This document shows positions 4,374 through 64,000 of a stretch of DNA of 64,000 bases, one piece after another. The first letter of the stretch is position 1. Every line of letters starts with the position of its first letter. The notes below the pieces were generated by a model. It had not been told where the DNA came from, did no database searches, and saw only the letters and a program-made list of their open reading frames with translations. The translations under genes were made by a program, and so were the position numbers. Source of the DNA: an uncultured Thermoplasmata archaeon (GTDB taxonomy: Archaea > Thermoplasmatota > Thermoplasmata > Lutacidiplasmatales > UBA184); contig CAWISZ010000004.1 of the NCBI GenBank assembly GCA_963838955.1, positions 401,979-465,978 of the forward strand, given 5' to 3'.

Positions 4374-4853
4374 ACTCCCCGATTAGGCGCAGTATGCGCC
4401 GACGCCCACTTCCTCCGCGGGTATAGCCTCTCCGGCGAGATCGACCGAGATTCGCAGCTCGCGCAACGGGCGCCTCCAGGGCATACCGAGCAATCGTTCC
4501 GTCCCCGTCTCGACCAAGTCCGTCCGCCGGGACCACTGCCGAAGTTGACACGAGAAGCGCGCACAGTGCGACGACCCAGCCGCGGGCGAAGGCGGCGGCC
4601 CGTCCGCCTCCTTCGATGGGAGAGGGCGGAGCGAGGAGCGTTCGATGCGAGCCTCCCGTCTGAAGCGGGCTCCTGCGGCGAAGGGAAGTCTCGCAAGCTC
4701 CCGCCTCTCCGTCATGAGGTCGATCGCGACTCTATCTCCTCGATTTCAGGAGCTCATCGGACCCCTCCGTCCGTACGAACGCTCTAGGGAACCGCGCACT
4801 CCTCATCTAGGGTTGCGCCGGCCGCGCCGAACAATGCGGGCCGAACGGCAAGG

Positions 4854-58819: not shown

Positions 58820-59486
58820 CGGTCTTGGACGGACCCGCCGCGACCCGCTCGGCGATCCGTGCGTCGATCAGGAGCTGGGCCGCCTCTCCCGGCAGCGAGA
58901 GCACGTCTTCGCGTCGCAGCTCGACCGTCTCCGAACCGACGGTGATCGGGCGACCGTCCTTGACGATCCGAACGTAGACGAGAGGCGGGGAGGCGCCGGC
59001 CGGCGCACGACCCCGCGACGGTTGGACCGCGGCGGTCGCGCCCTGCTCGGGCACCCCGGTCACCGAGACCGGTACCGCCTCTGGGTGCTCCGCCGGATGG
59101 CTCGGGACGAGATATGGGGCGACCGCGTGCCGATGAGAGGCGAGCGTGGAAACGAGGCGGTCCATGAGTTCGCGCTCCTCGGGCAGGGTGTTAGGAATGT
59201 CCCGGGGGCCTCCTACGCTGGCGTGGAGGGCGCTTCCGACCAGTTTAGCCATCCGTCCCTCTACGATGTCCCGGGAGAGGCTGCTGGCCCTCTGGTAGGT
59301 CTGTCGAGCGAGCTCACCCTTGCGGTCCGAGGGGTTCTCCCGTAGCTCGGCCTCGTAGGAGCGGCGCAGCTCGGCGAGATAGCTCGCCGTGACCGAGTAG
59401 AAGTTGTGGGGAAGCTTGGCCAGCCCCCCGCGGGAGGCATTCTCGTTCCTTCGCCACTCTAGAAGTTGGCCGTACTGGTCGGGCAT
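58812..59486 (-). CDS. GINS complex subunit (Gins15/Gins51-like)
   Basis: A-domain LLEWRRNE...LAKLPHNFYSVTASYLAELRR and B-domain VYVRIVKDGRPITVGSETVELRREDVLSLPGEAAQLLI. Confidence 0.5.
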   Translation of the reverse strand: MPDQYGQLLEWRRNENASRGGLAKLPHNFYSVTASYLAELRRSYEAELRENPSDRKGELARQTYQRASSLSRDIVEGRMAKLVGSALHASVGGPRDIPNTLPEERELMDRLVSTLASHRHAVAPYLVPSHPAEHPEAVPVSVTGVPEQGATAAVQPSRGRAPAGASPPLVYVRIVKDGRPITVGSETVELRREDVLSLPGEAAQLLIDARIAERVAAGPSKTVT

Positions 59487-59527
59487 CGCCGTGGGAACCC
59501 TCCGATGAGGGACCGAGGCTATAGGAG

Positions 59528-60013
59528 TTGCGGCGTCTACGGCCGGAGCGACCGATGCACGGGGGGGAGGACTCCGACCAGGTCTTCGAGGAATTCCTCG
59601 AGCTGTGGCGCCGTCTCTACCGGGCGAACCGCGATGACGCCGCCGTGGTCCTCGTGGAGGGGGAACGCGATCGCCGGGCCCTGGCCCGTCTCGGCCTGGA
59701 GGGGGTTATCGAGCTCGTTCATCGCGGGAGGACCCTCGCCGAAACCTCCCAGCAGCTCGTCCAGCGCCACCGGACGGTCATCCTGCTTACCGACTGGGAT
59801 CCGGAAGGGGGGAACCTCGCCCGCCGCCTCCGGGCCCTCCTGCAGGTCGGGGGAGTCACGCTCGACCTCGAGTATCGGCGGCGTCTCGCCCGGATCCTGC
59901 GCGGGGAGGTCGTGCATGTGGAGGGACTTTACGGATGGGCCCGGCGGATGGCCGAGCGCCGGGGGGCCACGATCGCCGAGACCTTGGAGCGGCTACACGC
60001 GGACGCGGCCTAG
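59528..60013 (+). CDS. Small Toprim-domain protein
   Basis: Toprim acidic motifs VLVEGERD and ILLTDWDPEG. The TAG stop lies inside the left copy of the IS target-site duplication. Confidence 0.55.
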   Translation: MRRLRPERPMHGGEDSDQVFEEFLELWRRLYRANRDDAAVVLVEGERDRRALARLGLEGVIELVHRGRTLAETSQQLVQRHRTVILLTDWDPEGGNLARRLRALLQVGGVTLDLEYRRRLARILRGEVVHVEGLYGWARRMAERRGATIAETLERLHADAA

Positions 60014-60014
60014 G
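60009..60014. repeat. Target-site duplication CCTAGG (left copy)
   Basis: Identical 6-mer at 61042-61047. Both copies directly abut the TGT...ACA ends of the IS element. Confidence 0.7.
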
Positions 60015-61041
60015 TGTAGTGTAGCAAGACATCCTGCCGCCTGAATTGTCAACACATATTGCCGCCCCCGGGAGGGGTGGCTTTGGTCAAAGAGGACGTT
60101 CGTCTCCGACTACAGGCGGTCAAACAGCATCTCGAGAAGGGGATCCGGTCCCGAGACATCTGCAAGCTCTTCGGGATCTCGGAGAGGACTCTGAGGTACT
60201 GGTGTCGAAACTACCGAGAGGAAGGCGTCGAGGGGCTACGGGACGAGTCGCGCCGTCCTCGCCGTAGCCCCAGGCGGATCCACGGTAACCTCGCGAATCG
60301 CATCCTCCAACTGAGGCGGAATCATCCGGCTTGGGGCGCTCTCCGCATCCATGCCCTCCTCACGCGGAGAGGCGTTCGGGTGAGTTCGAGCACGGTCCAC
60401 CGCCTCCTGAAGAGACACGGCTTCCTGGTTCGGATCGTCAAGAAGCCCAAGCCGTTCAAGCGATTCCAGCGACACCACGTCGACTCCCTCTGGCAGGTGG
60501 ATGTCTACGAGTTCCGTATCGCAGGGGTCAGGGGGAAGGTCTACGTCCACACGATCCTGGACGACCGCTCCCGCTTCCTGGTGATGGCACGGGCCTATCG
60601 GAGGGAGCGAACGCGAGAGGCGACCAACAACCTCTGGTGGGCGTTCAAGAGCGGGAGAACACCCAGGGCGATCTACGTCGACAACGGGAGCTGCTTCATC
60701 TCGGGTGAGTTCCGGCGATTCTGCCAGGAGCACCACATTCAGGTGATCTACGGGAGGCCGTACAACCCTCGGGGCCGAGGGAAGCTCGAGAGGTTCCACG
60801 GGATCCTGACCCAGGAGCTCGTCGGTCGGGTGAACTTCCGCTCTCTCGGAGACTTCCGGCGCCACCTGTACCACTGGAGACGGAAATACAATCGGAGCCG
60901 CATCCACGGAGGGATCGGCTGGAAGACGCCCGCTGAGGTCTACAATGACCGAAAGTTGATGAGCCGGGTCCGGATCAGGAGGCTCTGAGGGCGGCAATAT
61001 CTCCTGACAAGTCCAGCGGCAACATGTCCTGACACACTACA
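60015..61041 (+). mobile_element. IS481-family insertion sequence (1027 bp) with about 53-bp imperfect terminal inverted repeats
   Basis: Ends are TGTAGTG...CACTACA. The IRs match at about 41 of 53 positions. Single transposase ORF with HTH and DDE (rve) domain. The 6-bp TSD fits the NCTAGN target preference of IS481. Confidence 0.75.
60059..60988 (+). CDS. IS481-family DDE transposase (integrase core domain)
   Basis: N-terminal HTH. rve-fold residues around WQVDVYEF, IYVDNGSCFIS and KLERFHG. Confidence 0.8.
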   Translation: MPPPGGVALVKEDVRLRLQAVKQHLEKGIRSRDICKLFGISERTLRYWCRNYREEGVEGLRDESRRPRRSPRRIHGNLANRILQLRRNHPAWGALRIHALLTRRGVRVSSSTVHRLLKRHGFLVRIVKKPKPFKRFQRHHVDSLWQVDVYEFRIAGVRGKVYVHTILDDRSRFLVMARAYRRERTREATNNLWWAFKSGRTPRAIYVDNGSCFISGEFRRFCQEHHIQVIYGRPYNPRGRGKLERFHGILTQELVGRVNFRSLGDFRRHLYHWRRKYNRSRIHGGIGWKTPAEVYNDRKLMSRVRIRRL

Positions 61042-61047
61042 CCTAGG
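61042..61047. repeat. Target-site duplication CCTAGG (right copy); contains the rpl15e stop codon
   Basis: Direct repeat of 60009-60014. The minus-strand TAG of rpl15e is 61043-61045. Confidence 0.7.
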
Positions 61048-61657
61048 GAATCACTTTGGTCTGGGTTCGGCGGGTTTCCCGGCGGTTGCGCGTGCGCGAC
61101 GGGCGCATGCGTTCCGCACCCTTGCCCTTCCAGCGGAGCCCGCGGGTCTCGCGGCCGGCGCTGGTCAGACCGCGGTAGACCCGGCCCTTCTGAGTGGAAG
61201 CCGACATCCACTCGGTCTTCGGGTCGGCGATGACCGACGGGTGATGGACATCCACGAGGATGACTTCGAAGAACTTCTCCTTTCCATCCTCCCCGACCCA
61301 GTACGAGTTCAGAACTTCCAGGTTCGGGTAGTGCTTCTGCGCGCGCTCCTCGGCGATGCGCTTCAGGCTCTTCGCGAGAGTCATCCGAAGGATACCCTTG
61401 CGTTTCGGACGTCGCCCAGCGATGATCGCCCGGTGGCGCTGGCCGCCCCGGCGGACGCGCACGCGGACGACAATGAATCCTTCCTTCGCCCGATATCCGA
61501 CGGCGCGTGCCCGATCCAACCGGACAGGGTGCTCCACGCGCGTGACGGTGTTCTCGCGCCGCCAGGTCAACAGGCGCTCGTGACGAAGGGCCGCCCCCTC
61601 GTCGCCCAGGGTAGCCCGGAACGAGCGACCCATATAGCTGTACGCCGACTCCGTCAT
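61043..61657 (-). CDS. rpl15e: 50S ribosomal protein L15e
   Basis: MTESAYSYMGRSF... with full-length L15e similarity from the internal Met. TATA-like element (rc of 61693-61701) about 35 nt upstream. Confidence 0.85.
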   Translation of the reverse strand: MTESAYSYMGRSFRATLGDEGAALRHERLLTWRRENTVTRVEHPVRLDRARAVGYRAKEGFIVVRVRVRRGGQRHRAIIAGRRPKRKGILRMTLAKSLKRIAEERAQKHYPNLEVLNSYWVGEDGKEKFFEVILVDVHHPSVIADPKTEWMSASTQKGRVYRGLTSAGRETRGLRWKGKGAERMRPSRTRNRRETRRTQTKVIP

Positions 61658-61958
61658 GATGGAAGCGCGCGGCCCACCCGCGCCCCGACTATAAAGGTGC
61701 CGTCCCCGGGGGTCGGCCCATCGATCACCGTCACGTAGAGGTGGGTCGAATCGTCCCCGATCACACTGAGTCGGAGACCCGCTCCGCACGGCGCGGTAAG
61801 GTCCGTTCGGCCAGAGACATCGAGGCGAGTGCCACGCAATGATGCAGGCCTGAACCGGCTGGGCTTTTGCCTGAGAGGGTCTGACGCGAGACCCTCTCCG
61901 GCGTTGGGAAAGGGTTCGGGCAGCTCGTCCTCGGACGAGCGCGTTACAAGCGGTCGGT

Positions 61959-64000
61959 TCAGGTTACCGCCAGCAGCACGAGCTGACTCACGTAGGTCAC
62001 ATCCACCGTGCCGCTCGATGGGGAGATCGAGCTTCCCGGGGCGCTCGCAGTGTACGAGTACGATCCCGGACTGACGTAGAACAGCACGAAGGAGCCGGTG
62101 GCGGCCGTCTGCGTGACACCGTCAATCGTCACCGAGTACGATGCCCCGCTGGGGCCCCCGTACGCCAAGAAGACGATGGCGGTCGGAGGGCACGGCAAGT
62201 AGTCACCGCCCGTCGCAATGTAGCCGTACTCGTCGTAGGGGATCGCGGTTCCGGGGAAATAGTCGCCCCAGTAGTTCCCGCCCACCCACGGGAGCCCGAC
62301 GATGCTGCCCGAGAGGGAGTACCCGTTAACGATGCTGGCCTGGTCCGCCGGCACATAGCTCGGGAGGTTCCAGTTCTCGGCATTGAGCTGCGGGGACCCG
62401 TAGAAGAGATTGACGTTCTGCGAGTAGGCGGTGATCGACGTCCCGACCCAGTTGTTGTAGATCCAGTCGCCGCTCTCGAACGCCCAGATCGCGACCGGGG
62501 GTCCGTTCTGCGCACCGTCTCCCGGGTACATCGCCGGGGAAAGGACCGTGCTGTTCACGAACGTGTTACCCCAAACGACGTTGTCCGTCGGTGCGGTGGG
62601 ATCCGAGCCCGCCAGGAGGAGTGCGCTCCCCTGGCTCACGAAGGTGCTGTCCGCTACGAGATCCTGCGATCCGCCCCAGATGACCACGTTGGCGAGAGGC
62701 AGGAAGCCCGTCGGTCCGTAGTCCTCGTAGAAGAACCAGCCGGTAATCCCTTGGGCGCCCCAGATCGAAACGTGCGAAGAGTCAAAGATCTGGAACTGCA
62801 GATTGTTCGTGAACGGCAGCCCAAAGTCAGCGAGGACCGCGTCATAGCTCGACTGGTAGGTCAGTCCGAGGAGCGACGGGTTGTTGAAGCTGACGTAGGC
62901 CGTCGTATCGGCGAGCAGAACTCCCGGGAATACGATGTATAGGTAGTCGTTGAACTGCCCGAAGACCGAGTTCAAACCACCCGGGGCCTCGTTGTTCACA
63001 ATCGTATACGGGGACCCTTCGGTTCCGGAGCCTCCGGTCGAGATCGCCGCGAGCTGGCCATTGTTCCACGCGAAGAGAGGCGTGTAGACCCCTTCCGCAG
63101 AATTTGGCGTCATGGCGAAATCGAGGGTATTCTGGCCCCCAGCAGCGACAGTCGCCGTGACCTGAATCGGCGTGTAGTCGCTCATCATCGCGTTTACAGT
63201 GTACGTTCCCGGTGGGAGGACGAAATCAACGGTGCTCGCGGTTTGGGTCGGCGCCCAGGCGGCGTAGTTGGGATCGAACCCCGTTCCCGGGGTGAAGAAC
63301 ACGAACGCGTTGGACGGAGAGAGCGGGCCGGAGAACGTGGCCTGTCCTATATTTCCGCCCGGAGTCGCGCCCCATAGCGGTGCCGGGATCGAGGGGCCGA
63401 CGCCAAGCTGCACCGTTCCGGGGGAGGTGTACGTTTCAGCAATCCCTTCGGAAGTCTCCCCAGTCTCCGAGCCGACGTTCCATGCCGACGCGGGGCTCAC
63501 GTAGGAGGCGCTCGTGGCGTCCCAGTACGAGAGGCTTTCCGAGCCAGCGATTCCGTAAACCGAAGTGGTGGTCCCTCCGCCGGGCCCACCGATCATGATC
63601 TCGGCGTCATAGGGGATGAAGCCGGTCGGCGTGATCTGAGAGCCATCGACCAAGTAGGGAGCGGCGGGGACGGAGCCGATCGGCGTAGTCGAGCTGAACA
63701 GCACCGTGTCGTAGACCCCGGAGGCTTCACTCATCCCCGTACTCGCGTCGATCACGTTGTAGCCGAAGCGGACGGTTGAGTAGCCGTACCCGGTAGACGG
63801 AATGTTGGTGACGCTCGAATTCAGGTAGAGCTGGACCGTCACGGGGTAGGTGATCGCGAACGTCGGGCCGAAGTCGTAGTAGTACGCGGGGTAGACGGGA
63901 GTTCCGTTGTAGGCGTACAGAGTGCCGGGGGCGAGGTTGATGGCGGGGGACGAGAAGTTCCAAACGTTATCGAGGAACGTGATCGTTCCGGGGTAGGGGT
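61959..64000 (-). CDS. Secreted beta-helix-repeat protein (possibly thermopsin-family), 5' partial at window end
   Basis: Frame stays open to position 64000. Asn/Thr/Ser-rich with parallel beta-helix-like repeats (NNWVGTSITAYSQNVNLFYG, GNTFVNSTVL). C-terminal repeat SYSYTASAPG is shared with the S53 peptidase and the SBP-like protein. Confidence 0.45.
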   Translation of the reverse strand, partial: PYPGTITFLDNVWNFSSPAINLAPGTLYAYNGTPVYPAYYYDFGPTFAITYPVTVQLYLNSSVTNIPSTGYGYSTVRFGYNVIDASTGMSEASGVYDTVLFSSTTPIGSVPAAPYLVDGSQITPTGFIPYDAEIMIGGPGGGTTTSVYGIAGSESLSYWDATSASYVSPASAWNVGSETGETSEGIAETYTSPGTVQLGVGPSIPAPLWGATPGGNIGQATFSGPLSPSNAFVFFTPGTGFDPNYAAWAPTQTASTVDFVLPPGTYTVNAMMSDYTPIQVTATVAAGGQNTLDFAMTPNSAEGVYTPLFAWNNGQLAAISTGGSGTEGSPYTIVNNEAPGGLNSVFGQFNDYLYIVFPGVLLADTTAYVSFNNPSLLGLTYQSSYDAVLADFGLPFTNNLQFQIFDSSHVSIWGAQGITGWFFYEDYGPTGFLPLANVVIWGGSQDLVADSTFVSQGSALLLAGSDPTAPTDNVVWGNTFVNSTVLSPAMYPGDGAQNGPPVAIWAFESGDWIYNNWVGTSITAYSQNVNLFYGSPQLNAENWNLPSYVPADQASIVNGYSLSGSIVGLPWVGGNYWGDYFPGTAIPYDEYGYIATGGDYLPCPPTAIVFLAYGGPSGASYSVTIDGVTQTAATGSFVLFYVSPGSYSYTASAPGSSISPSSGTVDVTYVSQLVLLAVT

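Follow-up and report, generated by a model that had tools for sequence, protein, structure and literature searches.

At positions 60015-61041 of the DNA analysed here, a stretch of 64 kb hereafter called the window, lies a 1027-bp insertion sequence of the IS481 family, which is very probably complete and probably still active in its host, a soil/peat Thermoplasmata archaeon, and which was inserted on a hexamer, CCTAGG, shared by the stop codons of two convergent genes.

Read directly from the sequence, the element begins with TGTAGTGT and ends with ACACTACA, i.e. it has TGT...ACA termini, and the hexamer CCTAGG, a perfect 6-bp target-site duplication, adjoins it at 60009-60014 (left copy) and 61042-61047 (right copy); the element and both copies together occupy 60009-61047. 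A repeat search returned 60009-60067 and 60989-61047 as the top inverted pair of the region, with 59 nt including the palindromic duplication and 81 % complementarity. The terminal inverted repeats proper, at 60015-60067 (plus strand) and 60989-61041 (minus strand), measure 53 nt and reach 79 % in a blastn comparison of the element with itself. The termini, the imperfect inverted repeats of around 53 bp and the perfect CCTAGG repeat had all been part of the original prediction, and all were confirmed to the base. Each end is bipartite and contains two subrepeats of 17-19 nt, which at the left end lie at 60025-60041 and 60050-60066, 25 bp apart, and resemble CA(A/G)(G/C)ACAT..TGCCGCC; the pair at the right end (60991-61009 and 61016-61034) mirrors them, and both end subrepeats can also be written as CAGGACATNTTGCCG. 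A degenerate 18-nt motif describing these ends had two matches in the window, one at each end of the element, compared with 0.05 expected from shuffled sequences. The hexamer CCTAGG itself occurs five times in the window, including the two duplication copies.

The transposase gene (60083-60988, plus strand) encodes 301 aa between a TTG start at 60083, where gene callers begin, and a TGA stop at 60986-60988, which is the gene's own and lies 53 bp inside the element. Its product is identical to the protein P0001. A GTG at 60077 provides an alternative start, and a GGGAGGGG stretch is found directly upstream of the transposase start. According to the open reading frame listing, this is the single long sense ORF of the element, uninterrupted and with no second overlapping frame. 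Its assignment to the IS481 family, as originally predicted, was upheld by the NCBIfam model NF033577 (transpos_IS481), which scored 262.7 bits against a cut-off of 224 and covered profile positions 2-284 of 284, the query being the 309-aa ORF from the upstream TTG at 60059, of which residues 17-295 were aligned. Pfam detected rve (76 bits), rve_3 (56 bits), the IS481 leucine zipper LZ_Tnp_IS481 (28.6 bits vs 22.2) and several HTH domains, including HTH_32. The predicted DDE triad, D140, D200 and E236, with 35 residues separating the last two, is invariant across 14 homologs with identities down to 44 %; most homologs are 299-310 aa long. At the level of sequence, all the hallmarks of IS481 that we examined were thus present, i.e. 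profile, DDE core, a single ORF in an element within the family's size range of around 1-1.3 kb, TGT inverted repeats and 6-bp duplication.

The IS3 family is related to IS481 and has a related DDE (rve) core; its members carry two overlapping ORFs (orfA and orfB) joined by -1 frameshifting and produce duplications of 3-4 bp. This kinship, together with an NCBIfam IS3 model that narrowly passed its cut-off here (162.8 vs 160 bits), is what could speak for an element of another DDE family, most plausibly IS3. However, the IS3 profile was matched only in part (positions 93-368 of 369) and 100 bits under the IS481 score, one continuous ORF spans the HTH and DDE parts, the element is 1027 bp long, its duplication comprises 6 bp on a CTAG core and its transposase contains the IS481 leucine-zipper domain. 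Both IS3-specific features are absent, i.e. there is neither a frameshifted orfA/orfB pair nor a duplication of 3-4 bp. Membership in IS3 is therefore highly improbable, and we treat the element as IS481 in what follows.

On the left, the element adjoins a gene for a Toprim-domain protein of 152 aa (59555-60013, plus strand), with an ATG at 59555 and a TAG stop at 60011-60013, inside the left duplication copy. The Pfam Toprim domain was found at 31 bits, NCBIfam PRK04017 stayed below its cut-off, and the protein has the exact sequence of NCBI MFZ0699908.1, a 'toprim domain-containing protein [Thermoplasmata archaeon]' from a Thermoplasmata metagenome-assembled genome (MAG). On the right lies rpl15e, encoding ribosomal protein L15e of 204 aa (61043-61657, minus strand; Pfam Ribosomal_L15e, 238 bits; NCBIfam PRK04243, 260 bits vs a cut-off of 178), whose TAG stop reads as CTA at 61043-61045 in the right copy. 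The left CCTAGG thus holds the stop of the Toprim gene and the right CCTAGG that of rpl15e, and both stops are intact, in agreement with the original prediction. The predicted Toprim and L15e proteins are unchanged, and both genes end as their homologs do in the two closest relatives of the locus, the Thermoplasmata MAG loci L002 and L003.

The occupied site was not confined to one assembly. Contigs were chosen for encoding L15e or Toprim proteins identical to those of the window, and those from SRR28062071, SRR28062068, ERR12036785, SRR28011880 and GCA_049280295.1 contained one occupied junction or both at 99.9-100 % identity; these contigs showed occupied junctions only, with no empty allele among them. 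The contig L083 continues from rpl15e across 954 bp of the element, and L085 enters it on the Toprim side and covers 127 bp. It had been pointed out that inverted repeats and duplication failing in an independent assembly would speak against a real insertion; on the contrary, both junctions were reproduced. Four short-read contigs (L082, L084, L086 and L087) do stop 24-30 bp inside the element, showing that assemblers struggle here, and one might suspect an artefact in which a repeat wrongly bridged two contigs ending in CCTAGG. Yet breaks around 30 bp into the element are what would be expected of a k=31 graph at a genuine multi-copy repeat, both junctions recur at the above identities in separate runs, and L083 and L085 continue from either gene well into the element. 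An artefact is accordingly so improbable that it can be set aside in favour of a real insertion.

Further evidence for an insertion is given by related genomes. An L15e scan of GTDB species representatives yielded 80 loci, all from Thermoplasmata/Thermoplasmatota MAGs and many with isolate names of the soil/peat type. Wherever both genes were located (76 loci), the Toprim gene and rpl15e faced each other tail to tail, and no transposase separated them; none of the 80 loci gave a transposase match. The stops overlap by 11 nt in 42 of the 76 loci and by 4 nt, with a shared CTAG, in four, and are separated by a spacer of 3-57 nt in 29; the one remaining value, -136 in L076, looks like a bad partial match. 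In 75 of 76 loci, the stops therefore overlap or lie 3-57 nt apart.

Comparison of the locus in related genomes had been proposed as a means of finding the site before insertion, and the predicted empty site was indeed found in L002 (L15e 95 % and Toprim 80 % identical to those of the window) and L003 (93 % and 82 %, respectively). L002 reads ...GGAGCCTAGGGGATG... and L003 ...GCTCCCTAGGGGATG..., each with one CCTAGG that carries both stops, homologous to the left duplication copy and without the element, as had been claimed for the state before insertion; both are homologous to the reconstructed empty site ...GCGGCCTAGGGAATC..., also given as ...GACGCGGCCTAGGGAATCACTTTGG... In a blastn comparison, L002 aligned to the window in two blocks, with breaks at 60014 and 61042; its six bases 4611-4616 aligned to both CCTAGG copies of the window. 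Since a hexamer that aligns to both copies is the hallmark of target-site duplication, it is practically ruled out that the 1 kb represents an ancestral gene at this position, i.e. a domesticated, non-mobile, integrase-like gene native between the Toprim gene and rpl15e. Such a gene could be suspected from the contigs of the five other runs and assemblies, all of which show the occupied site, and from the lack of an empty allele among contigs encoding identical L15e or Toprim. However, the relatives lack the 1 kb, the two genes are convergent without a transposase in 76 related loci, the two closest relatives have the exact single-hexamer site, the element has inverted repeats and a perfect duplication, and an identical copy exists in a different flank. 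The reading as an insertion is therefore retained. As far as sequence comparison can tell, the only limit on its age is set by the divergence from L002 and L003, at around 79-87 % DNA identity.

The identical copy was found in L001 (SRR28061101), where all 1027 bp are 100 % identical but the flank is unrelated, supporting, at the level of sequence, the recent activity that the original prediction had suggested. There, the flank ends with ...GTGCCTAGC adjoining TGT, its terminal hexamer being CCTAGC, and the element lies 61 bp upstream of a gene start. A 130-aa protein encoded in this flank had matches only on short contigs, including L109, a relative of the flank; L109 is 86 % identical to the L001 flank, aligns up to the junction and has GCCAGG where the L001 target has GCTAGG.

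Related elements are numerous. Protein searches recovered 344 transposase homologs at E <=1e-10, with a dense set at 73-90 % identity located mostly on contigs of around 1 kb. Only two homologs carried an organism name, and both are archaeal: MGI0129364.1 (P0033), an 'IS481 family transposase [Thermoplasmata archaeon]', is 79 % identical to the window transposase, and a homolog from an Aenigmarchaeota MAG is 64 % identical. Complete related elements from metagenomes and MAGs share 77-89 % nucleotide identity with the window element, measure 1027-1029 bp by coordinates and have the same ends, and an end consensus, TGTaGTgT..CagGACAT.TtGCCG..TGAatTGTCAggA.ATaTtgCCGcCC, is conserved in ten of them.

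A target consensus of N-C-T-A-R-N emerged from 29 flank hexamers of related elements, the resolution of this logo being limited by a metagenome scan of 13 loci, several of which were truncated. Of the 29 hexamers, 28 have TA at positions 3-4, 25 have G or A at position 5 and 22 have C at position 2. This consensus, together with CCTAGG at the window element, bears out the NCTAGN-type target of the original prediction. Perfect 6-bp duplications flank the relatives in L104 (GGTAGG) and L105 (ACTAAT), and five of six positions match in L097 and L107. The duplication is clean in three elements only and near-perfect (5/6) in two, while six of 11 complete related elements have no good duplication, with one to four of six positions matching; these imperfect duplications could stem from chimeric short-read assembly or from recombination between copies.

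How the element came to lie on two stop codons can be explained as follows. The transposase would bind the bipartite ends and, going by what is known of the family, this DDE enzyme would recognise a CTAG-centred hexamer and cut it with a stagger of 6 bp, probably in a copy-and-paste mode; repair of the staggered cuts would then duplicate CCTAGG. In the ancestral state, the stops of the two convergent genes overlapped within a single hexamer, as TAG for the Toprim gene and as plus-strand CTA for rpl15e. Because the duplication includes the whole CTAG, each gene keeps its own stop and an unchanged protein, and, with stops and proteins preserved, the insertion was probably close to neutral and hence persisted. 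Displacement of a shared terminator, also put forward in the original prediction, was not corroborated: the ancestral genes overlapped by 4 nt and had no intergenic space between them, and on the plus strand from 59401 to 61864 neither T nor A occurs in runs of four or longer, so that no such T run exists on either strand.

With 46 sites in the window, CTAG is around four-fold rarer than base composition would predict (195 expected). A stop codon is present in at least seven of the 46 sites, a minimum based on crude GC3-based gene calls that miss genes such as rpl15e. Stop codons therefore account for a considerable fraction of the few targets on offer, and insertions at stop codons may be those least likely to be removed by selection.

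The idea that the element targets stop codons as such was considered and rejected, since related elements in L101, L104 and L105 were inserted in the spaces between called genes, and the copy in L001 lies upstream of a gene start. The position in the window would thus reflect a preference for CTAG combined with the survival of harmless insertions.

Horizontal acquisition was the alternative suggested for the element in the original prediction, and a recent transfer from bacteria might be read into its GC content, which is 0.61 compared with 0.67 for the remainder of the window, as well as into a published tree in which bacterial and archaeal IS481 transposases intermingle (PMC13343696). However, related elements have a GC content of around 0.62 whatever that of their flanks (0.55-0.65), and the lower GC content is therefore a property of the element. 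Moreover, the transposase gene has a GC3 of 0.81, and its host neighbours, the Toprim gene and rpl15e, have similar values (0.86 and 0.82, respectively). Metagenomes contain more than 100 relatives at 70-90 % identity, many of them at 75-90 %, and the named matches are solely the two archaeal ones, one of them from Thermoplasmata. A search of 72,556 bacterial plasmids gave 4,894 records with a match, the best of which was only 36 % identical, and annotated bacterial IS481 transposases on plasmids were 31-36 % identical to the window transposase. A recent bacterial origin is therefore very unlikely, and this part of the prediction was not supported.

A survey published in 2026 and covering 17,237 archaeal genomes found every one of the 27 annotated IS families in Thermoplasmatota, and the bacterial and archaeal clades of IS481 were intermingled in its tree (PMC13343696). 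Since IS481 had already been reported across archaea including Thermoplasmatota (PMC13343696), its presence here is no surprise. The ISEScan catalogue across GTDB archaea from that survey and the Thermoplasmata entries at NCBI concern the same family in the same phylum; in contrast to the present description, they are bulk annotations without ends, duplications, empty sites or this insertion.

PMC3053399 states, citing its ref. 33, that IS481 duplicates 6 bp at NCTAGN. The type element, IS481 of Bordetella pertussis, resembles the window element in its size of around 1 kb, its single DDE ORF, its inverted repeats and its 6-bp duplication of the NCTAGN type. For B. pertussis, target variants of the CCTAAC type have also been described (PMC3053399), in agreement with the A found at position 5 among the relatives of the window element. 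In contrast to the type element, the window element has an archaeon as host, and its ends are bipartite, around 53 bp long and made up of two subrepeats 25 bp apart.

A closer parallel to the shared stops is offered by ISRe46/TnRErm46, an IS481-family element of Rhodococcus equi whose NCTAGN repeat provides, with its TAG, the stop codon of parB; the same paper describes a DDE, probably copy-and-paste, mechanism for the family (PMC6794481). Both elements have a CTAG target, an NCTAGN repeat and a repeat TAG that serves as the stop of a host gene. They differ in that the right repeat of ISRe46 also supplies the transposase stop, whereas the window transposase ends at its own TGA, and in that ISRe46 carries resistance cargo, whereas the window element carries none. 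In addition, one palindromic hexamer here served two convergent genes at once. Archaeal IS481 elements, the NCTAGN target and stops supplied by the duplication are already published, and no new question is opened by them; the locus stands out only in that two genes shared a single palindromic hexamer.

The value of the analysis lies mostly in annotation, i.e. in the ends, the duplication, the target consensus and the empty-site control now available for an unnamed IS481-family element of a kind that is common in soil/peat Thermoplasmata metagenomes. The element also accounts for the breaks in short-read assemblies at this locus. The locus is, moreover, a tidy example of how a CTAG-targeting element can hit two stops at once and do no harm, as the duplication regenerates the stop.

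A further-reaching scenario, which we consider rather unlikely, is that soil Thermoplasmata currently harbour an active archaeal clade of IS481, with bipartite ends of 53 bp and no more than 36 % identity to the closest bacterial relatives on plasmids, and that the insertion is not silent. If so, the element would have split two genes with formerly overlapping 3' ends, read-through transcripts of the Toprim gene would enter the transposase gene in sense, and transcripts of rpl15e would run antisense to it, which could couple transposase expression to the host genes or alter their 3'-end processing.

Each terminal inverted repeat of the IS481-family element harbours two copies of the motif CAGGACATNTTGCCG, roughly 15-19 nt in length and 25 bp apart, i.e. 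at window positions 60025-60066 in the left repeat and 60991-61034 in the right one. The motif was also found at the element ends of the loci with related IS481-type elements (L088, L090-L093, L097, L101, L104 and L105), and is kept among elements with an overall identity of only 77-89%. The subrepeat pair at each element end looks like a set of putative transposase-binding sites.

Among the 11 related elements that are complete, six (L088, L090, L091, L092, L093 and L101) have no matching 6-bp duplication: their two flanking hexamers agree at one to four of the six positions, and the N-C-T-A-R-N pattern was still visible in every flank. The mismatches may stem from short reads joined chimerically across a repeat present in several copies, or from recombination between element copies. 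CTAG itself is around four-fold rarer than expected across the whole window, with 46 sites versus about 195 estimated from base composition (GC content 0.67).

The related IS481-type element of L104 lies on a MAG contig (GCA_046704665.1, JBJKRJ010000051.1) close to genes that match DDE_Tnp_1 and IS66-type transposase domains weakly, and this region (L104 70-2561) may therefore hold several insertion sequences in a small cluster.

As for the genes on either side of the element, wherever both the small Toprim gene and rpl15e were located, in 76 Thermoplasmata species representatives, the two lie next to each other in convergent orientation; the junction falls at about 4600-4660 (locus coordinates) in L002-L081 and corresponds to the hexamers 60009-60014 and 61042-61047 of the window. 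Their 3' ends overlap by 11 nt in 42 of the 76 loci, the Toprim TGA falling within the last codons of rpl15e, and by 4 nt in four, while a spacer of 3-57 nt separates them in 29; the distance of -136 in L076 is probably a bad partial match.

Archaeal terminators are usually recognized by an oligo-T signal. Since the plus strand of window 59401-61864 contains no run of at least four T or A, neither strand has a T run in this interval, and no oligo-T signal was found there near the end of the Toprim gene or rpl15e.

A large ORF adjoins rpl15e (window about 61959-63842, minus strand; 1212-3818 in L082, an independent short-read contig of the same population). It comprises 627 aa in the window listing and 868 aa as called in L082, for which the precomputed annotation gives a thermopsin peptidase domain (PF05317).
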